Positions 3,956-20,900 of a DNA stretch of 64,000 bases are shown piece by piece; within the stretch, counting starts at the first letter, position 1; each line of letters starts with the position of its first letter. The notes beneath the pieces were generated by a model. That model did not search any database. It saw only the letters and a list, made by a program, of their open reading frames with translations, and was not told where the DNA came from. This DNA comes from Candidatus Cloacimonadales bacterium (lineage in GTDB: Bacteria > Cloacimonadota > Cloacimonadia > Cloacimonadales > JAIOQZ01), in assembly GCA_963674825.1 (NCBI GenBank), contig OY771587.1:1824001-1888000 (forward strand), given 5' to 3'. Position numbers and translations under genes: made by a program.

Positions 3956-6900
3956 ATGAAACCAAGGAATTTCATTTTTGTATGGATTGCGCTAATCTGC
4001 ATGGCAATTCCGTTGCATGCGGAATACCCCGGCATCTGTATGAATTTCAGCGGTACCGGACAATACGGACACGGAACCGGTATTCCGACGACCCTGACGT
4101 CTCTGACCATGGAAGCATGGGTCAAGCATTCCGAGATGTCTTCTACCGTTCAGCGTTACCTGACCCTGAAGCCGGAAATGGCGATTATCAGGCTGAACAA
4201 CACGAACGGTCAGCTCCATTTCTATATCAAGCAGTCGAACGGATCACTCACCGCAGTCAGCGCGAATGTCATGACCACCAACGAATGGCTGCATGTCGCC
4301 GGTACCTACGACGGGACGACACTCAACCTGTATCTGAACGGCGAACTGGTTGCAACCAATACAGCTCCTGTCGGTGGTCTCTATACCCCGGACGGCGAGT
4401 TCGATATCAGCGGCAGTGGAGAACGATTGCGTGGCAGTATCGACGACCTCCGCCTCTGGAGTGACGTTCGCACCGGGACTGAGATCAAGGCGAACCGCTT
4501 CAAGCAGCTAACCGGAACGGAATCCGGGCTGGTTTCGTACTGGAAGTTCGACGAAGGAAGCGGAACGATCGCCTATGACTCGGCGGGAAACGCGGACGCA
4601 ACGCTTTTCAATATCACAGAAGACAACTGGATCGATTCCACCGTCCCGACCGTATCCGACGAATCAGGAAACGCCTTGAACCTGTACGACCAGACGCACG
4701 CGGTGGAGATTCAAACGAGGTCCGGATTGCCCATTTATACCAACTGCTCGGATAACGCCTATTCCATCTCCATGTGGATCAAGGGCGACAGCAGCGAGGA
4801 ATACAAGACTATCTACATGGAAGAAAGCACCGTTTATGCGGATTACTCCGCGTTCAACATCACAACGTGGAGTTCCGGCAGAATCTGGATGCATCTCGTT
4901 TCCGACGACAATCAGTCCATTTTGTCCAAGAAATCGGCAGGATCCGTTCTGGACGGGACCTGGCACAATCTCACCTGGGTCGATGACGACGGGGCGGCGG
5001 TGCTCTACATCGACGGGGTCGCCGATGCGATGGATTTCAGCTACACCAGGTCCAACAGCATCGACCTGGATGTGGCACGTCTTGGTCTCCCGGGGACAAC
5101 CAACTTCATCGGAGAAATCGACGAACTGAGATTATGGGACAAGGCGATGAACGAGGACGAGGTATGCGTGAACATGGTCTCGCCACTACAAGGCACCGAG
5201 ACCGACCTTGTCGCCTACTACCAGTTCAACGAAGCGGACGGCGAAGTCATGTACGACGTCGCTCGTGGTAACAACGGGATCATGGGCGGCGCGACAGCCC
5301 TCCATCGAACGGAATCGGATGCCCCGATCGGAACCACGGTGGGCGGTAACATCACATCCAGCACGACCTGGAGCGAGAGCCCGATCTATGTTATCGACGA
5401 TATCACGCTTTATAACGGCGCAACCCTGACGATCGACCCGGGAGTCGAAGTCGTCTTCGCAGGAAGCCACGTGGTCAACGTGTTGGGAAAGATCAGCGCG
5501 TACGGCACCGAGCAGGATTCGATCCTCTTCACGGCACTGAACGAAGATATCGGCTGGAAAGGTATCCGGTATATCAACACGAACGCAGACAGCAGCCGAT
5601 TCGTCCACTGTATCTTCGAGAAAGCAAAAGTATCCGGTACGAGCGATGAAGTCCGCGGAAGTGCCATGGAAATCAAGACCTTCTCGAAAGTGCGGATCGA
5701 CCACTGCGAGTTCCGTTACAACACGAACCTCAGCACCACGAGTGGCGAGGGAGGAACGCTCGCACTGCTTGCTTCCTCAGCGAAGGTCAAGGACACCGTT
5801 TTCCGTAACAACACAAGCACCTACTACGCAGGCGCGCTCTACACCTATTATGGTTCGCCGATGATCGATCGGTGTCAATTTATCGACAATAGCGCCAGCC
5901 ACTATGGCGGAGCCGTCGTCGTTGGGAATTCGGACGGTTGGTTACATAACTGTATTTTCAAGGATAACACCGCAGGAACGACTGGCGGTGCGCTCGACCT
6001 GGGAGGCGAATGCGAAATGTCCGTAGCGAACTGCGTTTTTGACGGAAACCACAGCGATACCCAGGGTGGCGCCATCTATCACAGCGGTAACACCTCGATG
6101 AACCTCAGCAACTGTACAATCATCAACAACTCGGCTGTTAACGGTGGCGGACTCGCGATTGACGGATTGTCCGATATTGCATTCCGCAATAACATCATCA
6201 GGGACAATACCGCTACCACGAGCGGTAACCAGGTGTTTGTCAATAGCTCAAGCGATGTCGATTTTCGCTACTGTGATATCGAGGACGGGCTAAGCGCATT
6301 CGGATACTGCACCGGCGCTACGCTGTCCGGAGAATACCTGTACTGCTTCGATCTCGATCCCGAATGGGAAGAAACGGAAGACGGCTACTGGATAAGCGGG
6401 ATATCGCCTTGTATCAACGCTGGCGATCCGGAGACGTCCCTCAGCGGTTCGGCGCTCCACGATATCAACGGCGATCCGCGCTATTACGATTACACCGGTT
6501 TTTCGGGAAATCTGGGAGAAGCGTTCGATCGCATCGACGTCGGAGCAGTCGAATCCCAGATGGGGCACCTGCTTGTTCCCGACGATACGGTGATCGACAT
6601 AGACCAGTACATCGACGAAAACCTGTACGTGCTCAAGGGGAGGACGCTTAATGTCGATCCGGGCGTGAGGCTTTCCTTCCGTTCCACAGCCCATGCCTAT
6701 ATATACGGTAGCCTGAGCGCCATCGGCGAGCCGGACGATATGATTACATTCACGAGCGCGTCTTCGTCTTCCAGATGGAAGGGATTCACCTTTGGCGAGG
6801 AGGGTGTGGAAACGAATGCGAGCAGTGTGCTCGAGTACTGTATCGTCGAAAACGGGGACATGGGCAGCGGCATGGACGAGCGCGGCGCGAACATCCACGC

Positions 6901-9900
6901 ATGGCGATATGACGACCTGCTGATACGTAATTGTGTTCTGAGGAACGGATATTCCTACTACGGCGGTGCAATGTATGCATATTATTCGAATGTCCGGCTT
7001 ATCGGCTCGGTGATATGCGATAACGAATCGGAAACCAAGGGTCGGGCGCTGTATTTCAATACTTCGCAAGTCGATATCGTCAATTGTACGATCACAGGGA
7101 ATACCGGCTCCGCATCCAGCACCGCGGCGATCTATTTCACCAATACGACCTATCAGCCGACGATCGTCAACTGCATCATCTGGGACAACGGTTCCTCGCC
7201 ACTCTATCCCGGCAGTGGCGCGCTGACCAACGTAACCTTCTGCGACATCGAGGGAACCTACCCCGGCACCAATAACTGTGCGTTCGATCCCAGCTTCAAG
7301 GAAGAAAGCGACACCCCGTACGACATCAACGGCTGGTCGTACTGCCTGAACGCCGGCACGCCCGATGCGGCGGGATTCGACCTCGCAGAAATCGATATCG
7401 CCGGCAATCCGAGAATCTTCCATCATCATGTCGGTACATACGACCGGATCGATATCGGCGCTTACGAGCACCAGGGTTATCTCGCTCCCTGCGATTTCAC
7501 CGCCTCGGACGGTAACAACGATTATCCCGGGTACGTCCAGTTGTTCTGGGACTATAATTCGAATTATAACTACCCTCCGATGGGATTTAAAATCTATCGT
7601 AATGGGATCAACATTACGATCGTCGATAGCGATACGCACGCGTATTCCGATTTCAACGCGCTTCCGGGACAAGTATATTCTTACGCGGTCGAAGCCTACA
7701 ATGGAGAGGAGGCGGGGCTTTCCGCCGAAGACAGCGGCTACCTCAAGCCCAACGGCATCATTTCGGGTACGATTCTGACAGCGAACAACAATCCGGTGCA
7801 GGATATCAAGGTCGTACTGGATCCATCCCCCGGTTACTGTCTGCGCTTTGAAAACAGCCATTCGCCATCTCTTGCGATCGAGGATCCAGGAACCGATATG
7901 CGCTACAACTACACCATCGAGTTCTGGGCGAGAACCCCCCTCAGCAATACGACGCTTCTGAAGAAGGGGATTATTCAGTTTCAGATCAATTCTTCGGGAA
8001 ACGCGGTGGTCACCAACGGCTCCAATTCGCTGACGCAGGCGATCGATTCGGTTAGCGTCGTCGATAACGACTGGCATCACTGGGCGGTAGTCAGCGACTA
8101 CTCCAATTCGTCGTGCTATCTCTATGTCGATGAGTACATCGTCGCCTCTTCAACCTCATTCGCGCTTTGTACGTCTTCCACCGGAAACATCCTCTCGGGA
8201 ACCAGTTTCGACGGCTATCTGGACGATATAAGGCTATGGTCTGCAGCGCGAGATTCGTCCGACATCGTCGATGGAAAGGACATTATCGCGCCCTGCGACG
8301 AGGATGGACTGGACGGTTACTGGACGCTCAACGAGGGAACTGGCACCACGATCTTCGACGCGACCAGCAACGCCCACAACGGTGTCGCGACCAACTGCGA
8401 ATGGTCGGCGCAGGACCCGGATATCCAACTCGGCGCGTTCACCGACGAGTGGGGCGATTACATGATCAACCAAATTCCTTACGGAAGTTCGACTACTTTC
8501 ATTGTTGTACCGACAAAATTGGGACATATCTTCCAGCCGGAGCAGCGATCGGTTACACTAAGCCAGAGTAACATCGCACAGAACGGAATCGACTTCACCG
8601 ACAACTCGATGATACCGATCTCCGGGTATGCCAAATACCAGGGCACAACATGTCCGGTGGAAAACGCCACAGTCTATCTCAACGGCTCTATGGCCCTGCC
8701 GGTGACGATGACGGATGAGGACGGTTATTACGTAATCGAAGTGGAACACGGAACCAACAGCATCATCTCGCTCGAATTCAACGACCACATTTTCAATCGT
8801 TCCTGGGATCTGGGAGTCGTTACCTACCCGAGGACCAACATCAACTTCGAGGACACCTTCAAGACACAGTTCCAGGCGAATGTCGTGGGCGGAACCGACA
8901 GCTATCCCATCGGTGATTTCAATTTGACCATCAATTCGGTGAACGGCTACTACAACCGGGTAGTGACCGGACAGGACTGGTCAATGGGAAGCGTTATCAT
9001 CAACAATCTGCCTCCGCTCGATTTCCATGTAACCGTCGATCCGGGCGATTTCGATCCTTTCGGGCTGGTTCTCGACGAGCAATTCCAGTCCATGAAGACC
9101 CAGGATATCGATCTGACGAACACGGACGAGACGATCGACACGCTCAGCTACGTCTGGCGGGCGCCGCTCAATATCGAAGTCGCCTGGCCCGATACGCTTG
9201 AACTGAAACACTTCGCCGATTATCCCGAGAGCGAATTCTACGTTCTGCCACAGAACGAATGGTGCTCGCTGGTGATCAAGGCCTGCGAGGACTACAGCTA
9301 CGAGGGGCATCCCGACCAGAAGACCTATCTCGTCGAATGCGACCTGACCATCAACGACGAGATTGGCACACAGGGAGAAACAACGGCATCCTTCGACGGC
9401 GAAGCGGAATACACCTATGAATTCGCGCCCTACACGCCCAATATCCAGGGCGGGTATGACAGGCAATACCAGAACATGATCGAGATCACGGTCGAGGATA
9501 CAGCGCACGATCGCTTCGCCACCCAGACCGACTGGGTGCTGACCGAGGGTATCAAGCCATTGGAAAGCACCTACGCGACGACTTCTCCTGAAATTCCCTT
9601 CCTGATCCTGCACGATCCTCCCGGAGATTGCAGCTATGCTTCATTCAACCAATCAAGTTCACATACCATGGGCTTCGGCGTTTCGGTCTGTACCGACATG
9701 GAAGAGAACACATACTCGAAGATTCACCTCGGAGCGGACCTCACGACAGAAGAAGGTCTGCTTTTCAGCGTGGAAAACGAGATCGATATTACCGCAGACA
9801 TGAACATGGGATTTACCATGGGAATGCATCAGGGAACGAGCTTCGAGCAGGAATATACCTTCACGACCAGCGAAGAATACACCACCTCGGAGAGCGATGA

Positions 9901-12900
9901 CATCATCGGCGATTTTGGCGCCGACGTTTTTGTCGGTGGCGCACTGAACTTGATATGGGGCATTACGAAAGTGCTTTCCTGGGATGACGAGGCAAATGAC
10001 GCGATCCTGGAACAAAATGTAATGGTCAGCCCGGATGGCTTCGCAACGGTCTATGTTTACACGGAAAGCCAGATCGAGAACTCCGTGATTCCAAACCTGC
10101 TGACGATCGGCGATACCGAGTCGGCCGATCGCTGGCAATCCTACCTGGACATGAACGAGTATAATAAGGAACATGCACAGTCGAATCCCAATCACCCAAA
10201 CAACATCTCGTTTTGCGCCGGTCCCGCGTACACCTATATGGAAGAGACTTCCACAACGATGTCAACGACGTTCGAATTCGAAATGACCGTAGGCACCGAG
10301 TTTGGAGAAGAATTCGGCATGACGGTTGATGGTGTTGGTGGCGAAACCGGCTACACTTTCTCAACGCAGGTTTCATTTGGCGTTTCCGCCTCAAATACTT
10401 TCGAGACCACAACGACATCCACGTTTGTTCTTGCCGATGACGATGTCGCTTCCGACCTGACCTGGATATCCGACTATTTCACCACCGATATCGGCGTGGA
10501 CCCTGTGTATGGAACGCCTGTTTTCAATCTTGTTTCCGGAGCTTCTTCAGCGCACTGGGAGCCTAATACACAGCCCCGCGATGGCGTTATGTTGACGGCA
10601 AACACATACACCGCCACCGATATTCCATCCGGCGGAACCGCGGCGTTCCTGCTATACCTGAGCAATACCAGCCAGACAGACGAAGCGCGCAGATATTTCC
10701 TCACGGTCCAGCATGGAACCAACCCAGTCGGCGCTACGGTGAAAATCAACGGCGTTTCTCTGGAAGACTGCATGGCATTCGATCTCGATGCGGGTGAAAC
10801 CCGTCAGGCGGTGCTTACCGTGGAACAGGGTGTCGGAGGGTATGAGTTGGAAGGACTCACGCTCGAATTCTATGCCGAGGGAGATCGTGGTTACGACGGC
10901 CCCGAGGGACATTACTTCGATGTGTTCAAATCATTCAATATCTATTGGGAAGCGCCATACAGCAGGGTATCCATTGGTCTTCCGCAAGACAATTGGCTAC
11001 TCAACCAGAATACCGGCGACAGCCTCAGCGTCATGCTGACCGATTACGATCTTACGAAGCCCACCTTCCGTTCGCTCAAGCTCCAGTACAAGCATCCGCA
11101 GGATGTCAACTGGCTGCCGGGATTCGAGATTCCGCGCGATTCGCTGGCATCGCATCCCAATTACATTTTCTACCCCTGGGATGTCAGCGGTATCCCCGAC
11201 GGATTGTACGAGATTCGCGCTGTCGCCACCGACAGCCTGTTGGCGGACTTCAACACGGAGTCTCTCAGCGGCACGATCGATCGGAACGGTCCGGATGTCA
11301 TGGGCGATCCGCAGCCGCTGGACGGCATTCTTGATAACGACGACGAAATATCGATCACGTTCGTCGAAGAGATCGATCCGACCACGGTCAACGTCACGAA
11401 CATCTCCGTCGTAATTGTCGATGTCGGCAACATGGAAGTGGATTGCGAGCTTGATTGCTACGAGAACAAGGTCGCCATCACGCCGCGAATCGCCAACTAC
11501 TGGCTCGAGAATCACACGGTCAGGGTAGAGGTCGCGAATGTTTGCGATATCTACGGCAACCCGATGGAAGAGCCGGTGGACTGGGAATTCTTTGTCAACG
11601 CCAATCCCGTCAACTGGGAGAACGCCAAGATCGAGGTGATCAAGCCGCTGGGCGAGGAACTGATCATTACAACCCGCCTGATCAACAACGGAGGGCAGTT
11701 ATCTTCGTTCACCATCGAAAACCTTCCCGTATGGCTTACGGTCAGCCCGGATTCCGGTCAGCTTCTGCCGCTCGATTCGGAAACCATCACCTTCACCGTG
11801 AGCGATCAGATCGGTTTCGGCACGTACATGGACACGGTATATGCCGACATCCCGTCGCTCGGAACGGAAACGCTCGTATTCGATATCGGCGTCATCGCCG
11901 ATCCTCCCGAATGGTCAACGGTGGCCATTACGGGCTACGATTACTCGATGTCGATTACCGGCAAGATGTCGATCGAAGGTGAGCTTTCCGGTGATCTCAA
12001 CGACGTGATCGGCGCTTTCGTGCAGAATACGTCCGGTCAATACGAGTGTCGCGGGTATGCGCAGACAGAGAAAGTGCCCGGACTAACCGACGCATTCGCC
12101 TTTTTCCTGACCATCCACAGCGACGAGGAATACGGGGAAGATCTTCTGTTCAGAGTTTGGGACGCTTCCGAATGTAAGGAGCATTTCGGTATCGAGGAGA
12201 GTTACACGTTCATCGAGGGGGCGGTATATGGAATGCCGTCATCGCCGGTCGTGGTTCACGCCTCGCCGGAACTGGTTCGGGATATCTCCTGTAGCACCGG
12301 CTGGACATGGCTTTCCACCAACCTCGAGAACCAGGTGTCCATGTCGGTCGATACGCTGCTGGAGAGCCTCACCCCACAGAACGGCGACCTGATCAAGAAT
12401 CAGACAGAATACGCCCAATACGTCGAAGGCTCGGGATGGATCGGCTCTCTGACGGAAATCGCAACCAACGAGATGGTCAAGCTGAAACTGGCTCAATCCG
12501 ATGAACTGACCCTAAACGGACTGCTCGCCGATCCGTACACCTCGCAGATCACCTACGGAAGCGGATGGAACTGGATCGGATACATCCCGCACGTCAGCGT
12601 CAGTGTGACGGAAGCGCTCGCCGATATCGACAATCCGGTCAACGGCGATCTGATCAAGAACCAGCACGGATACGCCCAATACCTGGATGGATATGGATGG
12701 ATCGGATCGCTCCTCTTCATGAATCCGGGCGACGGATACATGCTGCATACCGAGAACGCGGGAACCTTCCATTATCCCGATTACGAACTGACCCGCGGTC
12801 TGGAGACAATATCCGACGGGGATCGGCATATCGCCAGCACCCCCGAAGTTCCGGGTTGGGACATCAATCCGCTCAACTACGAGTATTCTGCCAATATCAC

Positions 12901-13438
12901 GGGCGTGCTGTGGCGGGACAGCGGCTTGTTGCTGGATGATGCACTTGTGATTGGAGCGTTCAGCGGAGATGAATGCCGCGGTATCGCCGGACCGATCGAG
13001 GCCCAAGACCAGTTGATGTATTTCCTTACCATATATTCGAATGACTATCTCGACACAATCACGTTCAAAATCTATAATACGGAAACCGGTGTGGTTACGG
13101 GAATTGAAGAAGAAATCAACTTCATCAGCAACCAGATCATCGGTGATCCGCTCGATCCGTACCACTTCGAATTACCTTCCGGAATTATTCCTGGCCCGCA
13201 AAACCTGAGAATCACCATCGTCGGTAACGTGGCGAACCTCTTATGGAATAGCTGTATCGGAGCGCAGTCTTATCGTGTATATTCCAGCGATGATCCCGAA
13301 ACCGAAGATGAAGACTGGGAACTGGTCGGTAATGTCAATGAGACCTCGTGGCAGGGCGCGATATCCGGAAGCAGACGATATTATCGCGTGACCGCAGTTT
13401 ACGATATCACCAGCCGGGGCGGACAACAGAAACGTTAA
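3956..13438 (+). CDS. Giant secreted multidomain protein (3160 aa): signal peptide, 2 LamG/ConA, right-handed beta-helix regions, FN3, LamG, Ig-like/BACON-like modules, duplicated C-terminal modules, FN3-like terminal domain
   Basis: RBS AAGGAG; signal peptide MKPRNFIFVWIALICMAIPLHA; LamG motifs (WLHVAGTYDG...IDDLRLW, YWKFDEGSG); GGA(I/L)/FxxN beta-helix repeats; IDIGAYE; duplicated GDLIKNQxxYAQY and YxYSxxITG...IGAF...ECRG units. Confidence 0.9.
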   Translation: MKPRNFIFVWIALICMAIPLHAEYPGICMNFSGTGQYGHGTGIPTTLTSLTMEAWVKHSEMSSTVQRYLTLKPEMAIIRLNNTNGQLHFYIKQSNGSLTAVSANVMTTNEWLHVAGTYDGTTLNLYLNGELVATNTAPVGGLYTPDGEFDISGSGERLRGSIDDLRLWSDVRTGTEIKANRFKQLTGTESGLVSYWKFDEGSGTIAYDSAGNADATLFNITEDNWIDSTVPTVSDESGNALNLYDQTHAVEIQTRSGLPIYTNCSDNAYSISMWIKGDSSEEYKTIYMEESTVYADYSAFNITTWSSGRIWMHLVSDDNQSILSKKSAGSVLDGTWHNLTWVDDDGAAVLYIDGVADAMDFSYTRSNSIDLDVARLGLPGTTNFIGEIDELRLWDKAMNEDEVCVNMVSPLQGTETDLVAYYQFNEADGEVMYDVARGNNGIMGGATALHRTESDAPIGTTVGGNITSSTTWSESPIYVIDDITLYNGATLTIDPGVEVVFAGSHVVNVLGKISAYGTEQDSILFTALNEDIGWKGIRYINTNADSSRFVHCIFEKAKVSGTSDEVRGSAMEIKTFSKVRIDHCEFRYNTNLSTTSGEGGTLALLASSAKVKDTVFRNNTSTYYAGALYTYYGSPMIDRCQFIDNSASHYGGAVVVGNSDGWLHNCIFKDNTAGTTGGALDLGGECEMSVANCVFDGNHSDTQGGAIYHSGNTSMNLSNCTIINNSAVNGGGLAIDGLSDIAFRNNIIRDNTATTSGNQVFVNSSSDVDFRYCDIEDGLSAFGYCTGATLSGEYLYCFDLDPEWEETEDGYWISGISPCINAGDPETSLSGSALHDINGDPRYYDYTGFSGNLGEAFDRIDVGAVESQMGHLLVPDDTVIDIDQYIDENLYVLKGRTLNVDPGVRLSFRSTAHAYIYGSLSAIGEPDDMITFTSASSSSRWKGFTFGEEGVETNASSVLEYCIVENGDMGSGMDERGANIHAWRYDDLLIRNCVLRNGYSYYGGAMYAYYSNVRLIGSVICDNESETKGRALYFNTSQVDIVNCTITGNTGSASSTAAIYFTNTTYQPTIVNCIIWDNGSSPLYPGSGALTNVTFCDIEGTYPGTNNCAFDPSFKEESDTPYDINGWSYCLNAGTPDAAGFDLAEIDIAGNPRIFHHHVGTYDRIDIGAYEHQGYLAPCDFTASDGNNDYPGYVQLFWDYNSNYNYPPMGFKIYRNGINITIVDSDTHAYSDFNALPGQVYSYAVEAYNGEEAGLSAEDSGYLKPNGIISGTILTANNNPVQDIKVVLDPSPGYCLRFENSHSPSLAIEDPGTDMRYNYTIEFWARTPLSNTTLLKKGIIQFQINSSGNAVVTNGSNSLTQAIDSVSVVDNDWHHWAVVSDYSNSSCYLYVDEYIVASSTSFALCTSSTGNILSGTSFDGYLDDIRLWSAARDSSDIVDGKDIIAPCDEDGLDGYWTLNEGTGTTIFDATSNAHNGVATNCEWSAQDPDIQLGAFTDEWGDYMINQIPYGSSTTFIVVPTKLGHIFQPEQRSVTLSQSNIAQNGIDFTDNSMIPISGYAKYQGTTCPVENATVYLNGSMALPVTMTDEDGYYVIEVEHGTNSIISLEFNDHIFNRSWDLGVVTYPRTNINFEDTFKTQFQANVVGGTDSYPIGDFNLTINSVNGYYNRVVTGQDWSMGSVIINNLPPLDFHVTVDPGDFDPFGLVLDEQFQSMKTQDIDLTNTDETIDTLSYVWRAPLNIEVAWPDTLELKHFADYPESEFYVLPQNEWCSLVIKACEDYSYEGHPDQKTYLVECDLTINDEIGTQGETTASFDGEAEYTYEFAPYTPNIQGGYDRQYQNMIEITVEDTAHDRFATQTDWVLTEGIKPLESTYATTSPEIPFLILHDPPGDCSYASFNQSSSHTMGFGVSVCTDMEENTYSKIHLGADLTTEEGLLFSVENEIDITADMNMGFTMGMHQGTSFEQEYTFTTSEEYTTSESDDIIGDFGADVFVGGALNLIWGITKVLSWDDEANDAILEQNVMVSPDGFATVYVYTESQIENSVIPNLLTIGDTESADRWQSYLDMNEYNKEHAQSNPNHPNNISFCAGPAYTYMEETSTTMSTTFEFEMTVGTEFGEEFGMTVDGVGGETGYTFSTQVSFGVSASNTFETTTTSTFVLADDDVASDLTWISDYFTTDIGVDPVYGTPVFNLVSGASSAHWEPNTQPRDGVMLTANTYTATDIPSGGTAAFLLYLSNTSQTDEARRYFLTVQHGTNPVGATVKINGVSLEDCMAFDLDAGETRQAVLTVEQGVGGYELEGLTLEFYAEGDRGYDGPEGHYFDVFKSFNIYWEAPYSRVSIGLPQDNWLLNQNTGDSLSVMLTDYDLTKPTFRSLKLQYKHPQDVNWLPGFEIPRDSLASHPNYIFYPWDVSGIPDGLYEIRAVATDSLLADFNTESLSGTIDRNGPDVMGDPQPLDGILDNDDEISITFVEEIDPTTVNVTNISVVIVDVGNMEVDCELDCYENKVAITPRIANYWLENHTVRVEVANVCDIYGNPMEEPVDWEFFVNANPVNWENAKIEVIKPLGEELIITTRLINNGGQLSSFTIENLPVWLTVSPDSGQLLPLDSETITFTVSDQIGFGTYMDTVYADIPSLGTETLVFDIGVIADPPEWSTVAITGYDYSMSITGKMSIEGELSGDLNDVIGAFVQNTSGQYECRGYAQTEKVPGLTDAFAFFLTIHSDEEYGEDLLFRVWDASECKEHFGIEESYTFIEGAVYGMPSSPVVVHASPELVRDISCSTGWTWLSTNLENQVSMSVDTLLESLTPQNGDLIKNQTEYAQYVEGSGWIGSLTEIATNEMVKLKLAQSDELTLNGLLADPYTSQITYGSGWNWIGYIPHVSVSVTEALADIDNPVNGDLIKNQHGYAQYLDGYGWIGSLLFMNPGDGYMLHTENAGTFHYPDYELTRGLETISDGDRHIASTPEVPGWDINPLNYEYSANITGVLWRDSGLLLDDALVIGAFSGDECRGIAGPIEAQDQLMYFLTIYSNDYLDTITFKIYNTETGVVTGIEEEINFISNQIIGDPLDPYHFELPSGIIPGPQNLRITIVGNVANLLWNSCIGAQSYRVYSSDDPETEDEDWELVGNVNETSWQGAISGSRRYYRVTAVYDITSRGGQQKR

Positions 13439-13457
13439 TTTCTCAGTTACTGCCATC

Positions 13458-13486
13458 CGCGGGTATCATCTTGATATCCGCGTTTT
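13458..13486 (+). terminator. Putative intrinsic terminator after giant protein 1
   Basis: Stem CGCGGGTATC / GATATCCGCG (one G-U) followed by TTTT. Confidence 0.6.
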
Positions 13487-13500
13487 CACATCGGGTGAAA

Positions 13501-13672
13501 TGGAAAGACTGCAATCACTGGAAGGAAAAACTGCCGTCACTTGCAACTTGGAAGAGCGACTGCATTGATGTGTTTGATTGGGCGAGAGTTAAGGGCATTT
13601 CCTATCACTTCGACTTGTTGCACGATGGAAAACATGCTGTCACAAAGTGGAAAATGAAGGTGTCACTTTACA
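13501..13672. mobile_element. Orphan transposon-like terminus (IS21/Mu/Tn7-style): four imperfect direct repeats ending in terminal ACA
   Basis: TGGAAAGACTGCAATCAC (13501-18), GGAAAAACTGCCGTCAC (13524-40), TGGAAAACATGCTGTCAC (13626-43) and TGGAAAATGAAGGTGTCAC (13648-66) form two pairs with 22-23-nt period, then TTTACA (5'-TGT on the minus strand) exactly where Cas2 similarity begins. Confidence 0.55.
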
Positions 13673-13845
13673 GCGACCGGCTATGGAAGAAAGTATGCGG
13701 TGGTAGTAAGGGAGGTGCCTGCATGATGTTGTGGTCAACCAACAACGAGCAAGGTTTTCGTGTTGACTTCTGGGGTGCCAATAGTAGAATCGTCACAGAT
13801 TGGGAGGGACTTAAGCTATTGACAAAGCCCTCGAAGCCCGATTAA
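13673..13845 (+). pseudogene. cas2: 3' half of a type I-E cas2 (YgbF-like), 5'-truncated
   Basis: DRLWKKVCGGSKGGACMMLWSTNNEQGFRVDFWGANSRIVTDWEGLKLL matches the I-E Cas2 C-terminal pattern (R.xW..V....G.AxMxWxTNxEQGF.....G...R...DxDGLxL); directly precedes a I-E array; the N-terminal ~40 aa are absent. Confidence 0.8.
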
Positions 13846-13852
13846 ATCAAGA

Positions 13853-14063
13853 GTATTCCCCACGCATGTGGGGGTGAACCGTCCGGGCCGGGAAAGAGCT
13901 GATACTGGCGATGTATTCCCCACGCATGTGGGGGTGAACCGTACGGTCGTCCAATGCCCGCCGCGGCTGTCACGTATTCCCCACGCATGTGGGGGTGAAC
14001 CGCAAACTGCTGCTTGTTCATCATGGAGAATATGGTATTCCCCACGCATGTGGGGGGGAACCG
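13853..14063 (+). CRISPR. CRISPR mini-array 2: 4 repeats, 3 spacers (31, 32, 32 nt); same repeat as array 1
   Basis: Repeats at 13853, 13913, 13974 and 14035; the last is degenerate (GGGGGGGAACCG), marking the trailer end on the + strand. Confidence 0.97.
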
Positions 14064-14086
14064 CTTGAGAAGATTATCGATAATGG

Positions 14087-15094
14087 CTAGTGTCTTTGTT
14101 TTTTGATCTTCGCTTCCAGGGCTTGCAACTCGGCATCGTCTTGCCGGTCGGCTTCTCTGGCTTCGTCAGCTTTTCGCTGCTTATCATAATCCAGATATAG
14201 CGAGGAGGTTTGTTCCTTCATCTGTTCATGACTGATGGAACCTGCGTGTTTGAGGAGCGGAAACCCATTGGACGAGATAATCTGATCCACGTTTTGTTTC
14301 CAGAAGCTCATACGAGTCTCGCGGCGATTCTTGGCACGAAGCTCCGCCGTTTCCAGGAAGATCACGACAAGGCGGTTCAGCGTATCGATTTCGTCTTCGG
14401 TCAGGTAATTCTTGGCGATCAGAATGTCCTGCTTGCGAACCTTATCGCCCTGCCAATGCATAAGTCCGAAGTGTGGGTCGTTCGCATCGGCCCGATCGAT
14501 GATAAGTTCTGCGGCGGTTTGCTGGGTGACGGCAAAGAGGAGCATATTTTGTACGGTGGCGAAAAACTGATGCGTGGCATGGTCTGTCTTGTCATAGTCG
14601 CTACTGAGGGCGAAAAGGTCCCGCACCTTCTGGTAAAAGCGCTTCTCGGAGGCACGAATCTCGCGGATACGTTGCAGCATCTCATCGAAGTAGTCCGGAC
14701 GACCATCCGGGTTCTTGAGCCGCTCGTCGTCCATCACGAAGCCCTTGAGCAGGAATTCTTTCAGAACGGTCGAAGCCCAGCGCCGGAACTGAACGCCGCG
14801 TGGTGAACGCACCCTGTAGCCCACCGCCAGAATAGCGTCCAGGTTATAGAGGTTGATTAGACGCTGTACCTCACGGCTACCCTCGATCTGAACTACCGAG
14901 GATTCCTCGGTAGTTGCCTCTTGATCCAGTTCTCTGTCGTGATATATGTTCTTTAGATGGAGACCAATGTTGTCCACGCTAACATCAAACAATTCCGCCA
15001 TTTCCCGCTGTGTCAACCAGACCGTGTTCTGGTCCGCGCGAAGCTGTATCTGGCTTTTGCCGTCTTCGGTGGTGTAAAGGATCAGGTCGTTCAT
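14087..15094 (-). CDS. RhuM-family (Virulence_RhuM) DNA-binding protein
   Basis: Signatures TVWLTQREMAELF, YNLDAILAVGYRVRSPRGVQFRRWA, GFVMDDERLK, DYFDEMLQRIREIRASEKRFYQKV, AKNYL. Confidence 0.92.
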   Translation of the reverse strand: MNDLILYTTEDGKSQIQLRADQNTVWLTQREMAELFDVSVDNIGLHLKNIYHDRELDQEATTEESSVVQIEGSREVQRLINLYNLDAILAVGYRVRSPRGVQFRRWASTVLKEFLLKGFVMDDERLKNPDGRPDYFDEMLQRIREIRASEKRFYQKVRDLFALSSDYDKTDHATHQFFATVQNMLLFAVTQQTAAELIIDRADANDPHFGLMHWQGDKVRKQDILIAKNYLTEDEIDTLNRLVVIFLETAELRAKNRRETRMSFWKQNVDQIISSNGFPLLKHAGSISHEQMKEQTSSLYLDYDKQRKADEAREADRQDDAELQALEAKIKKQRH

Positions 15095-15575: not shown

Positions 15576-17198
15576 ATGGGTAAGACCTGTGTGATTTACG
15601 CACGAACAAGTGCCCGTGATAATGAGGATTCTCTCGACGCTCAAATCGAAAAATGTAACGCGTACGCGAGAAAACGAAATCTCCGTTTCCAGGAGGCGTT
15701 CAGAGATGAATGTTCTGGGTACTCTGCACCTCTGCATCGAAGGCCGGGACTGTTGGCAATGATGGAGTATCTGAGAGGTCATCAGGAAACGAAGATCGTC
15801 CTTGTTCGAGACATTTCCCGCTTGAGCAGGTCTGTCTTGCAGGGATCATACCTCTTGCATTGGCTTCAGCTCCAAGGGGTCGTCATCCATGATGTCGAAA
15901 TGCTTGGGGCTTCCCCAAACGCATCTTTGGAGCCATCAAATTCCTGGACGTACCGGAGGATGTTGCAGAAAAAATTGATCGATGCCGAAGACTATGTCCA
16001 TTCTCATAGAGCGGGTAATAAGGATCGCGAGAGTGACGATAGGCTGTTTACGGGCAAAACGCCTCCATTCGGTTACGAAAATCATCATGGGATATTGACA
16101 AAGCGAAAGGATGCCATTCCGCTCGTTGAAGGAGTCTTTTCCATCGTGATGGATTACCTGAACAGCGAAGGTATGGGAAAGGAGCCAGTCAGCTACAAGA
16201 ATATCTTTGATGGGATCAAAGACAAGGCAGAATTCATAGGGGTGAAACAGAAGATCGCCACAAGAAAGGAGAGTATCACGCTCGAGAGCGATCGAAGCCT
16301 GAAAGGCATGCTCCAGAATCCGTATTACGCCGGTTTCTCATCAAGCAGCACCCATAAGACTAAGCCTCCTGTAAAGCGCTCCCCGAAACCCGAAGATCGC
16401 ATTCACGAGTACTATATCAACGTCGAGGACTATAATCGACTCAATAAGGGATATTGTTCCATCGATTTCCCACAGGTGAAGAAACCGAGTTTAGTATCCC
16501 TTATCACCTGTCAACATTGCGGAGGACACCTTCACAAGAAGGATGATCGTTCTGTATGTCGAGCATGCGGCAAATCTGTTGCCGAGAAAACCCTTGTTGA
16601 GGAGATCGCCGATAATCTTCGGAAGTACTATATAAATATCGATAACAATTTCGTTCGGAACATGCTCTCGTATTTCCGTAAAGATAAACTTGAGAAACTT
16701 CTTCGCAGCATTCAGGAGCAGCTTGAGAGCTATGAAGTGCACTCTGAGGCTGTTATCGAGGATATGTCTCTATCCAGCAGATCGGTCGAAGTTGATGATG
16801 TAGTTATACATCTCCGAAGTGTATGCGATGAAATAGAGAAAATGAAGAGTACCCAATCCAATGAATTGTCGGTGCTTTGGCTTCTGGCATATCATGATGG
16901 GAAAGGGCGAGCCTTCCTCGAGAATTTTGACATCAGCATCATACATGACTTCGACTCCCAAAACCTCGTGCTGACCATGCCTGAAGCGGCTTCGATCGAG
17001 GTGCATGAAAAGGAGCTCCGAAAGGAGGAGCTTACGCAGGAGTTTCATGATTATCAGAACTCCCGAGAGAAAATCAAGAAGATGATCGACGAGGTGCCCG
17101 GAATCAAGGCTGCCCTGAAGTATGATGCCGGCTTCGCGAGCGGGGATTTCTGGGCCGACTACAACGACGCGATCTTTACGCATGATGTCGATACATAA
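15576..17198 (+). CDS. Large serine recombinase (resolvase, recombinase and Zn-ribbon/coiled-coil domains), 540 aa
   Basis: RBS GGAGG; YARTS catalytic Ser; DECSG...RRPGL; DISRLSR; PPFGY; LQNPYYAG; CQHC...CRAC. Confidence 0.9.
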   Translation: MGKTCVIYARTSARDNEDSLDAQIEKCNAYARKRNLRFQEAFRDECSGYSAPLHRRPGLLAMMEYLRGHQETKIVLVRDISRLSRSVLQGSYLLHWLQLQGVVIHDVEMLGASPNASLEPSNSWTYRRMLQKKLIDAEDYVHSHRAGNKDRESDDRLFTGKTPPFGYENHHGILTKRKDAIPLVEGVFSIVMDYLNSEGMGKEPVSYKNIFDGIKDKAEFIGVKQKIATRKESITLESDRSLKGMLQNPYYAGFSSSSTHKTKPPVKRSPKPEDRIHEYYINVEDYNRLNKGYCSIDFPQVKKPSLVSLITCQHCGGHLHKKDDRSVCRACGKSVAEKTLVEEIADNLRKYYINIDNNFVRNMLSYFRKDKLEKLLRSIQEQLESYEVHSEAVIEDMSLSSRSVEVDDVVIHLRSVCDEIEKMKSTQSNELSVLWLLAYHDGKGRAFLENFDISIIHDFDSQNLVLTMPEAASIEVHEKELRKEELTQEFHDYQNSREKIKKMIDEVPGIKAALKYDAGFASGDFWADYNDAIFTHDVDT

Positions 17199-17938: not shown

Positions 17939-20900
17939 ATGAGAAACACATCCATGATTCTTCTCTTGATCTTTCTGATTGCCGGCATCACGATGTTTGC
18001 CGAGAATGGAGGAACCTGCCTCGAATTCGATGGCGTCGATGACTATGTGGCGATTGCACAAAATAGCGGTCTTCCGATTTACGAAAACGGAACTCAGCTT
18101 ACCATCAGTGCATGGGTTAAGGCCACGAATGAACACGACAATCGTGTCTATTCCGAATCCAGTACAGGCGATAACGATCTCCTCTTCTGTCTGGGCTCAT
18201 ACACCGGCGGGTATTTCCGTGTATATATACGCAACGCCTCGGGAACGGTGCTTTGCGAAGCGGTCTCCACCAGCCTTGTATTCGATGAAACCTGGCATCA
18301 CTTCTGTTATACGGATAATAATGGCGATGCTCATCTCTACATCGATGGCGTTGAAGACGCGACCGATTTTTCATACACAAGGCAGACGCTTGACTTCAAC
18401 CGCTCCACCATTGGCGGTATCTATCGCACAGGGCTAACCAACAACATCGAAGGATGCATCGATGAGGTGCATATCTACAATCGTGCGCTTACCTCCAGTG
18501 AAGCAGCGCTGGAAATGTATCTGAGCCTTGACGGAACCGAAACCGGACTGGTCTCGAGCTGGAACTTCAACGATGGCTCTGGAGCTTCACTCAACGATGT
18601 TACGGGCCATAACGACGGGACCCTGTACAACATGGATAATGCCGACTGGGTCGCCAGCGATATTCCTCTCCATCAGGTCGCGAGTGGTTCCTTCACATCA
18701 GATACGATCTGGGCTGCCGACACAGTCTATGTCCAGAATGACGTTACGGTTGAAGATGGTGTTACATTGACGATCAATCCTGGCGTGACAGTCAGCTTCA
18801 CCGGTCGCTATAAGCTGGATATCAGCGGACGATTGCTGGCGATCGGAACGGAGCAGGATTCGATCCGGTTTACCGCTGACGCTTCAACTGGCTGGGGAGC
18901 AATCCGTTTCTATAATACACCAGCCACCAACGACAGCAGCAAGGTTGTTCATTGCGTGCTTGAGAATGGCAAATCCGGAGGAAGCGGCTACGATCTATAC
19001 GGTGGCGCAATGTTTTTCAATAACGTTGATAAAGTACTCGTCAAGGACTGCACTTTCCAGAATAACAATGTCGTCGAAGGCGGAGATGGTGGGGCGATTG
19101 CTCTTCGCTATAGCGTTCCTGCAATCTATAACTGCGTCTTCAAGAATAACATGGCGAACGGAGAAGGTGGCGCACTCTTTTTTCATGAATCACAAGCTGA
19201 CGTTGTAAACTGTCTGTTCCAGAACAATAGCACCACATCATGGGGTGGCGCGGTTAGCCTGATTTATTCATCCGGTGGATCGTTTACAAACTGCTTATTC
19301 GATGGAAATCACACGACATCCAATGGAGGGGCGATTCGCTCAACCTGCTCAATTACCGTGCTGAACTGTACGTTTGTAGAGAATCAGGCAGACATGGGCG
19401 GTGCGCTGAGCTTCTCATCCGGGATGGGAGGAACAATACGGAACTCCATTCTATGGGGAAACAGCGCCAATACAGGTAATCAGGTTTGCGTAAGCGGTAC
19501 AGTCAATACAGATTTCCATTACTGCGATATCGAAGGCGGAACGGATGGCTTCGGATACAATACCGGCGCTACCTGGACCGGTGATTTCAACAACAGTTTT
19601 GTTCTACAGCCGAATTTCAGGGGAACAGGAGACGATCCCTGGAAGCTTTCTACCAATTCACCCTGTATCAACTCGGGTGATCCAGCTACATCGATGTCCG
19701 GTATTGCGCTCAATGCGCTGGACGGCTATGGAAGATTCTACGAAGACACATCAGTAACCGGCTGCCTGGCCGAAGCGCTTGGTCGAGTTGATCTTGGTCC
19801 ATACGAAAACCCATCGATCAACAATCTTCCTGACGGTACCGTCATCGACGAAGATCAGAACTTAGTCGGAAGGTACTATATCTATCCGGGATTCACCACA
19901 ATCATCGAGCCGGGGGTTACCCTCGAGCTTGCAACCAATGCGGAATTCATCGTTTATGGCAATATCATCGCCGATGGTACTGCTGATCAGCCAATTACGT
20001 TTACTCATGCTTCCGAGTATGACGACTGGTGTGGACTCATCTTCCGCGATGTCATGCCGGATATCGCAACTGCATCGCATTTCGAGTATTGTACCATCGA
20101 GTATTCGACAGGCGATAACTATGTCAGCTATCCCGATTTCCTCACCGGTAGCTACCTCTCTTACAGCGATGGTGGAATCATTTACGCCGAAGATTACGAA
20201 GATCTTACCTTCGTCAATTGCCGCCTTCGCTATGGCGCTTCGGATGATGATGGCGGTGCGTTGTACCTTGATAACACCAATCTCAGCATGACCGGCTGCG
20301 TTCTGACCAATAACTACTGCGATGACGATGGTGGTGCGATCTACAGTACAGGTTCGGAGGTCAGTCTCATCAACTGTACGATCGCTGATAACAACAACAT
20401 CGGTACTGGGGGAGCTCTCTACTTCTCAACCTACAATCCTCAACCGATTATCACAAACTGTATTATCTGGGGAAATCACAGCAGTGCGATTGTACCCGGA
20501 AGCGGTACCCTGACAGAGGTAACCTATTCCAATATTCAAACCGTCTTTTTCGGTACTGGAAACACCTGCGTCGATCCCGGCTTCGAAGGAAGCGGAGAAC
20601 ATCCGTACGCGCTTCACGCAGATTCCTACTGCATCAACATGGGAACGCCAAGCACTTCCGGGCTCGACCTCCCAGCAAATGATGTACAGGGGAATCCGCG
20701 TATTCATGCGCACACATACTCAACATCCGATCGGATCGATATCGGCGCATACGAGTATCCGGGATACTTGGCACCGGCGAACTTCACGGCTTCGGACGGC
20801 TCCAATGAATATTCCGGATACGTGCAGTTATTCTGGGAATACAATGCGGGTTACGATCCCGAGCCCTCCGGATACCGCGTATTTCGAAACGATGTGAGCA

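Follow-up and report, generated by a model that had tools for sequence, protein, structure and literature searches.

The DNA described here is a window, meaning the whole stretch of 64,000 nucleotides that was analysed (contig OY771587.1, positions 1,824,001 to 1,888,000 of the forward strand), from the genome of a Candidatus Cloacimonadales bacterium, and its subject is the place at which the end of a mobile element meets part of the CRISPR adaptation gene cas2. Positions 13500–13672 are the end of a mobile element and have a precise boundary that recurs in multiple copies; in a congener the same end closes a Mu-like prophage. At 13672/13673 this 173-bp solo right end meets what is left of a second cas2, namely its last 56 codons, and these codons head an array of four CRISPR repeats. 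The arrangement is likely to be the scar of a transposition into cas2, after which the body of the phage and the cas genes upstream were lost. In what follows, G000 denotes the genome under study (C1 being its contig) and G001, G002 and G003 denote congeners; seven-figure coordinates are those of the G000 contig.

A precise, multi-copy phage end

The sequence-only reading of this DNA had reported four GGAAA-N-RTCAC repeats, arranged in two pairs with a period of ~22 nt and ending in ...TTTACA, with similarity to Cas2 from the next bases onwards, and all of these features were found at 13502–13672 and beyond. A pattern search of both strands of the 64-kb window for GGAAA-N(3–9)-RTCAC returned six matches, four of them packed within 165 nt; shuffled versions of the window held a mean of 2.33 matches, and six were reached in one shuffle out of 100. 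The four sites fall into a 20-nt and a 15-nt family with a spacing of 22–23 nt within each pair, and the outermost continues into ...GTGTCACTTTACA, the last base of which is 13672 (...TTTACA), similarity to Cas2e starting at 13673. The right end of Mu (attR) carries the MuA sites R1–R3, and by analogy with these the four sites are predicted to be bound by the transposase. The features of the end are as follows:

13500–13672, + strand: right end ('A-end') in a solo copy of 173 bp, from a family of Mu-like transposable prophages, terminus ...GTGTCACTTTACA
13502–13540, + strand: inner pair of GGAAA-N-RTCAC sites (13502–13518 and 13524–13540), predicted transposase-binding sites
13627–13666, + strand: terminal pair of sites (13627–13643 and 13649–13666), the outer site being common to the left end of the phage

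Across the whole genome, clusters of the motif occur four times, three being copies of the 13500–13672 end and the fourth (3139748–3139871) being unrelated, and no partner cluster of these sites in inverted orientation was found. A search of 13200–14300 against Rfam gave one match, which lies inside the CRISPR array and is below threshold (17.6 bits, against a gathering score of 50).

When the 234 bases between the upstream giant open reading frame (ORF) and the cas2 fragment were used as the query, two further copies of the end were recovered from the genome, one at 3314848–3315020 (86% identity) and one at 1663147–1663294 (84%). In each of the three copies the similarity breaks off precisely at the TTTACA base, beyond which the flanks have nothing in common. 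Matches to the end were found in nine of the 41 genomes searched (G000 included), with several copies in each of the three congeners. In this search the matches to the end stop at query positions 190–198, mostly at 193–195 (equivalent to window position 13672), and the matches to cas2 begin at 194–196; the two are contiguous in G000 only. Ten of the 12 copies that were aligned retain the full terminus, with at least seven different flanks, and the remaining two are truncated by the end of another element. One IMG/VR contig likewise contains the exact terminal 36-mer, with a tRNA-like host flank behind it. The earlier proposal of a transposon-like end fused to cas2 is therefore upheld, both by this multi-copy boundary and by its identity with the right terminus of the prophage in G001. 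Moreover, transposases of 47% identity and a partner-type end exist elsewhere in the G000 genome, and the relatives do not carry this sequence upstream of a short cas2.

The phage to which the end belongs is Mu-like and transposable. A prophage of ~34.8 kb in G001 has this end as its right terminus and, at its far end, encodes on the minus strand a CI-like repressor with helix-turn-helix (HTH) and peptidase S24 domains. The prophage encodes a transposase of 696 aa (phrog_310, 2e-92; Pfam Mu-transpos_C, 9.6e-19; a weak rve match) and virion proteins that include terminase subunits, a portal and a head protease, alongside methyltransferases and a beta-helix protein, and a 158-aa tail-like (tail-fibre-like) ORF lies ~225 nt before the conserved end. 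When the right terminus is reverse-complemented, the left terminus of the family, TGTAAGTTGACACC..., aligns with it over ~27 nt; the two form an imperfect inverted repeat that includes the outermost GGAAA..GTCAC site and in which 21 of the 27 terminal columns are invariant across the right ends and the left ends of G001 and G000. The termini are of the TG...CA type, with ...TTTACA on the right (13672) and TGTAAG at the start of the left end in G001. The G001 transposase matches 263 phage records, mostly of Pseudomonas and Ralstonia phages and all at less than 60% identity (22–33% for the best matches listed); several of the listed records are phages of 35–39 kb in which the matched gene is annotated as 'transposase' or 'transposase A'. 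Among the families that had been named for the end (IS21, Mu and Tn7), Mu fits; no match to TnsA was found in the genome.

G000 itself has no transposase of the G001 type, the best matches being three Mu-type transposases of 47% identity in other prophages. Matches to the rve domain number four in the whole genome; all are outside the window, and three belong to these Mu-type transposases. Close to the end no transposase was found by a Pfam scan of four nearby ORFs and the tail of the giant ORF. The right ends of the resident Mu-type prophages have 12 of 13 terminal bases in common with the end in the window, with different subterminal repeats. Since G000 lacks a cognate transposase, the relic at 13500–13672 is probably immobile. 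One further site, '...GTGTCACTTTATA' at 1974801 beside a solitary CRISPR repeat, matches the terminus at 12 of 13 positions, but it has no subterminal sites and was not counted as an end, because several such matches are expected by chance.

Other copies of the end occur in a variety of settings. In the congeners, a right end may be followed after 0–2 nt by a left end of the same phage type, or be cut by such a left end at varying inner positions (L049 at ~17998–18003; L050 at ~17998–18003 and at 7487; L059 at 3147/3148), and the G001 prophage itself sits within an earlier copy of its end. Apparently, copies of the right end that are already present, or the DNA next to them, serve the phage as landing places. 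The intact G001 prophage (L059, 4383–4407) also has the GGAAAAACTGCCGTCAC site, as a 24-nt copy, in the intergenic region between the repressor and the transposase and early genes, so the same protein might read both the sites at the ends and the operator region. At 1663147–1669835 in G000, right and left ends of this type stand opposite one another with 6.7 kb between them, in an arrangement that is orthologous in G002; the proteins encoded in the interval are just three, a RelA/SpoT-TPR-RyR protein, a NUDIX protein and a DUF4062-AAA-TPR protein. The pair thus bounds a mini element whose cargo is defence-like and which has neither a transposase nor a target duplication.

The second cas2 and its array

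The bases that follow the phage end belong to a fragment of cas2 (here cas2') rather than to a gene. The ORF at 13348–13845 matches the Pfam Cas2e family PF09707 (E 3e-11; 43.7 bits against a cut-off of 24.7) over profile positions 38–86 of 86 only, through its residues 109–157, which are encoded from 13672 on, and the full-length domain of ~86 positions is thus not reached; the NCBIfam model TIGR01873 is matched at positions 39–87 of 87 with a score of 22.8 bits, below its cut-off of 33.15. The similarity to Cas2 noted earlier therefore sets in at ~13673, directly behind the end. The features in this part of the window, with that of the first array, are:

13673–13845, + strand: cas2', which retains the last 56 codons (Asp39–Asp94) and the stop codon of a second copy of cas2; its frame is that of an ORF open from 13348
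13705–13752, + strand: patch of 48 nt that holds all differences from the intact cas2 (11 differences in 9 codons, all synonymous)
13763–13790, + strand: promoter-like site TTGACT-16-TAGAAT within cas2', 63 nt upstream of the first repeat and identical in the intact cas2
13853–14063, + strand: CRISPR array 2, with three spacers of 31–32 nt between four 29-nt type I-E repeats, the final one carrying a single mismatch
14087–15094, − strand: RhuM-family gene (E 7.5e-110), adjoining the trailer end of array 2
1–653, + strand: the part of CRISPR array 1 that lies in the window; the array has 18 repeats overall and begins, left of the window, 7 nt past the stop codon of the intact cas2

A whole-genome search located a full-length cas2 to the left of the window, at G000:C1:1823297–1823554 (PF09707 profile 1–86, 113.7 bits), and because this gene stands upstream, the fused piece is a second, partial copy. 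The full cas2 is the last gene of an operon that encodes Cse1, Cas7, a Cas5 of 390 aa with an HNH domain, Cas6e, Cas1 and Cas2, in which intact cas1 and full cas2 occupy 1822347–1823578, ~14.1 kb upstream of the junction; no cas3 was found among the ORFs scanned there. No other piece of cas2, and in particular no second cas2 5' half, was recovered from the genome with tblastn. The sequence-only reading had concluded that the insertion disabled spacer acquisition, and this does not survive the finding of the intact cas1, the full cas2 and the 18-repeat array: with the operon intact, spacer acquisition has probably not been disabled and the host has probably kept its immunity.

Two observations bear on the wider setting of the cas operon. 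Around 20 kb to its left (G000:C1:1796734–1798516) lie genes for a tyrosine integrase and an HTH_17 excisionase-like protein, which are followed by a Rad52-like gene, genes for secreted proteins with type IX secretion system (T9SS) tails and a MoxR-AAA/DUF2201 pair, and the operon may sit in an island. In G003 (C1; L056, reverse strand, ~1259–1275) nearly all of cas1 and the first codons of cas2 are gone, ~916 nt of the G000 sequence being replaced by ~15 nt, so that the adaptation module of this congener is broken.

Array 2 begins 7 nt past the stop codon of cas2' and has the hallmarks of a type I-E array, namely palindromic repeats of 29 nt that end in ..AACCG, with spacers of ~32 nt and repeat periods of 60–61 nt. 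Its repeats are identical to the 18 of array 1, save for a single base in the last one. The first repeat follows the cas2 stop codon at a distance of 7 nt in all four genomes of the genus (G000–G003), and the last ~50 alignment columns before and into the repeat are almost invariant, with one variable column at 271–300 and none at 301–321; elsewhere in the cas2 alignment there are two to eight variable columns per 30 (columns 31–270), and 19 in columns 1–30, where the start of cas2 in G003 is disrupted. The 7-nt spacing, the promoter-like site and the near-invariance of the last ~50 nt together suggest that the 3' end of cas2 probably doubles as the leader and promoter of the array in this genus. 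Array 2 is, on the same sequence evidence, probably still transcribed, and it could possibly acquire spacers with Cas1–Cas2 from the upstream operon. Next to its own array, G003 keeps ~75 nt of the 3' end of rhuM as a relic, and array 2 with its trailer therefore looks like an old array end. The 20 spacers of G000 and 24 spacers of the congeners were compared with the genome and all phage loci retrieved, and none matched cas2 or phage, the matches obtained (two of 16–19 nt and one of 16 nt) being at chance level; no spacers were common to different genomes.

The differences between cas2' and the intact gene are odd in their distribution. Over the 209 nt that start at 13673 and close with the first repeat, the two copies differ at 11 positions, all of which lie in the 48-nt patch and which include a TCC-to-AGT serine switch; clustering as tight as this was seen in none of 300,000 random placements, and the chance that nine random codon changes would all be synonymous is ~1e-6. 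Outside the patch, cas2' has bases in common with the intact G000 copy that all three congeners lack; inside it, seven of the 11 states are unique to cas2'. No donor allele for the patch came to light: an exact 33-mer of the patch had no match in public genome contigs or in metagenome contigs, and a degenerate, back-translated pattern of the patch matched nothing in metagenome contigs and only the three congeners in genome contigs. The simplest reading is that cas2' is a mosaic: gene conversion would have replaced most of a diverged cas2 that was once functional with sequence of the resident copy, or would have acted the other way round.

Origin of the junction

On the reading that is likely to be correct, a Mu-like phage would have transposed into a second cas2 gene, and the phage body and the upstream cas genes of that second copy would have been lost afterwards. 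The loss could have come about if the giant gene of the chromosome recombined with a cargo gene resembling it beside the right end of the phage or, alternatively, by a phage-mediated deletion, as with DMS3 in P. aeruginosa; the surviving 3' end of cas2 would now serve as the promoter and leader of array 2, fed by the Cas proteins of the upstream operon. The features on the inner side of the end are:

3956–13438, + strand: giant ORF of 3160 aa, which stops on the inner side of the phage-end relic
13458–13482, + strand: terminator-like hairpin with an 11-bp stem followed by TTTT (−20.3 kcal/mol, z −4.0)

The hairpin was not flagged by a consensus terminator scan because just four T residues follow the stem; with the giant ORF stopping at 13438, the end does abut the terminator of the giant gene on its inner side, as had been described. 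The giant gene is 95.5% identical to its counterpart in G002 over window positions 5342–13319, and there the identity ends, within a C-terminal domain of ~65 aa (YRVYSS...RYYRVTAV; window 13199–13435) that is also found in more than 20 other G000 ORFs, both large secreted-protein ORFs and genes of resident Mu-like prophages, as well as in the G001 prophage. A resident prophage of a sister type (G000:C1:3775084–3811199) has an S24 repressor, a 660-aa Mu-transpos_C transposase and, after the latter, a 244-aa AAA_22 ATPase followed by CHAT-TPR and CHASE2-cyclase genes. It contains giant ORFs of 2263 and 4569 aa, the second of which bears the ~65-aa domain and ends 524 nt before the right end, so the order 'giant gene, then right end' is native to the family. 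Recombination at the giant gene is plausible given that the break at 13319 falls in a domain shared with phage genes and that the 4569-aa ORF lies near a right end.

Several points weigh against this account. Neither a partner junction (a cas2 5' half with a left end) nor a second cas2 5' half exists in the genome, and hence the insertion event cannot be reconstructed and a target duplication cannot be checked. Positions 13310–13500 have no relative in the genome itself, in the loci retrieved or in five relatives (best E 0.1), so that the proposed recombination with a phage cargo gene has no sequence witness. The facing ends at 1663147 and 1669835 lack a 5-bp duplication (GACTG against ACTTC), and the scan of ORFs in the G001 prophage turned up no MuB-like ATPase. 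On either side of the patch cas2' is 100% identical to the intact copy, whereas the patch itself is near-saturated at synonymous sites, a contrast that a simple history does not predict. A fuller version of the same history is correspondingly more speculative and, taken as a whole, unlikely: a cargo-carrying Mu-like element would have hit the cas2 of a second Cas5-HNH locus, and recombination of its last cargo gene with the giant gene through the shared C-terminal domain would have deleted both the body of the element and the leading part of the locus, with the 3' half of cas2 being kept as promoter and leader, array 2 persisting as a live satellite served in trans, and the patch being the last trace of a functional second cas2.

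It is possible, if somewhat doubtful, that the junction arose instead directly when a resident Mu-like prophage underwent replicative, intramolecular transposition, an event that would have deleted or rearranged the DNA between the prophage and its target and left a single phage end on a truncated CRISPR-Cas locus, as in evolved lysogens of DMS3. A report on transposable phages describes CRISPR deletions with phage–host boundaries together with large duplications (PMC11406979), and here the upstream half of the second locus is gone with one phage end at the break. Larger rearrangements in the region are also suggested by a third CRISPR-Cas relic 137 kb to the right and by G002, in which the intervening 137 kb are missing. 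The order in G002 is cas2, three repeats, activator, giant gene, an IS110-like insertion sequence (IS) and the Feo genes, with no phage end of this type; in G000 the Feo genes (DtxR/FeoA-FeoB) are at 1974827, leaving ~137 kb extra relative to G002 (window 13439 to G000:C1:1974826). The third relic lies at the right edge of that stretch (G000:C1:1974546–1974703, ~150.5 kb from the window start) and consists of the last 108 nt of cas6e (92% identical to the resident gene, 84–87% to those of the congeners), the start codon of cas1 and one variant repeat with two loop changes; ~125 nt past it begins the DNA that follows the giant gene in G002. However, the phage body that such an event leaves behind is missing, and a further deletion would be needed in any case; the genome does not contain this phage a second time, and the order of events cannot be read from one genome.

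The original proposal, in which a transposon sits in the genome's cas2, spacer acquisition is off and the body of the element lies to the left of 13672, is very improbable. It would account for the precise join of the end to cas2, and family cargo, giant ORFs included, can lie directly inside the right end, so that the giant ORF could be former cargo. Set against this are the intact cas1, full cas2 and 18-repeat array 14 kb upstream. To the left of the 173-bp tip, moreover, there is only the hairpin and the giant ORF, and the surroundings contain neither a left end nor a repressor or transposase of this type of phage; the only left-end relic of the window's type in G000 is that at 1669835, ~168 kb away, and G002 has the same array–activator–giant gene block without the end. 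The junction that this proposal predicted, 'cas2 5' half...GCGAC|TGT', is not found either: none of the seven GCGACTGTAA sites in the genome fits it. There is likewise little to recommend the view that the ORF running through the phage end into cas2' (13348–13845, or from an in-frame ATG at 13655) is expressed as a truncated C-terminal half of Cas2 with a function of its own, for example in competing for Cas1. The frame is open from 13348, and such a product would explain why the changes in all nine codons are synonymous, which is so improbable by chance; but one fusion in three would be in frame by chance, the G001 phage end is open in this frame too although no cas2 lies behind it, and gene conversion from a once-functional allele explains the synonymous-only divergence equally well. 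Half of a ferredoxin fold, as judged from the structure of Cas2, is also unlikely to be stable.

A mis-join in the assembly, either of the second cas2–repeat unit or of its junction with the phage end, is barely credible. Both partners are indeed repeated (three copies of the phage end, two of the cas2 3' end with CRISPR repeats), but the copies of the phage end are only 84–86% alike, cas2' has 11 differences and three spacers of its own, and the rhuM flank on the trailer side matches the array flank of G003. Termini of the form TGT...ACA with reiterated sites of ~22 nt are also typical of Tn7-like elements, and a CRISPR array does adjoin the end. Nevertheless, the least likely of the explanations considered is one in which the end derives not from a phage but from a transposon of the Tn7-like, CRISPR-associated or IS21 type. 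A Tn7-like or CRISPR-associated transposon was rejected because the genome gave no TnsA-like match, in a search with no separate queries for TnsC and TniQ; of just four rve matches three are Mu-type transposases of prophages, in G001 the end closes a prophage with a terminase, a portal and a Mu-transpos_C transposase, and the array lies outside the element.

Relation to known systems and further features

The family resembles Mu, D3112/DMS3 and BcepMu in its TG...CA-type termini. As in Mu, several similar sites lie in a ~22-nt phase within the last ~175 bp, the opposite end (seen in G001) carries a repressor and a Mu-transpos_C DDE transposase, and insertion is not site-specific, as at least seven different flanks attest. 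The size of ~35 kb, the virion genes and the tail-fibre-like genes by the right end in G001 are likewise those of Mu-like phages. It differs from Mu in that the sequence of the sites is unrelated, the repressor is CI/LexA-like (HTH and peptidase S24) rather than like Mu c, the intact copy showed no MuB-like ATPase, and the transposase is less than 60% identical to that of any phage record; unlike the Mu-like phages named, it has a Candidatus Cloacimonadales bacterium as host, and at this locus 173 bp of it survive.

The closest experimental parallel is DMS3, the transposition of which in lysogens of P. aeruginosa PA14 is reported to produce CRISPR deletions bounded by phage–host junctions and large duplications (PMC11406979). 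There as here, the end of a transposable phage bounds a truncated CRISPR-Cas locus with large rearrangements around it. The DMS3 case was a 12-day experiment in which the phage was whole and CRISPR was lost (PMC11406979), whereas the relic described here is natural and probably old, the body of the phage is gone and an intact CRISPR-Cas system has been kept; nor did the spacer comparison find a self-targeting spacer against the phage. A type I-E system with Cas5-HNH and without Cas3 has been reported as the 'HNH-Cascade' of Candidatus Cloacimonetes (PMC10910872, PMC11794572). The upstream operon agrees with it in gene set and in Cas5-HNH, and both arrays use the 29-nt repeat of this operon; the second, orphan array headed by half a cas2 13 kb downstream sets the present locus apart.

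With a complete cas2 14 kb upstream, the case is a fairly ordinary one. It leaves knowledge of Mu-like phages and of CRISPR unchanged, and its value lies in annotation and as a data point on the conflict between phages and CRISPR. It offers a natural counterpart, in an uncultured lineage of anaerobic digesters, to laboratory findings that transposable phages break and rearrange CRISPR-Cas loci, and the Cas5-HNH system of this lineage is of biotechnological interest. The placing of an array 7 nt past cas2 is a compact design, in which the leader and promoter probably lie within the gene. For annotation, the ORF at 13348–13845 should not be recorded as a cas2 gene, nor the repeats at the phage end as a regulatory region. 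Beyond the rhuM gene, on the trailer side of array 2, profile scans identified one further feature, given for context only:

15576–17198, + strand: large serine recombinase of 540 aa

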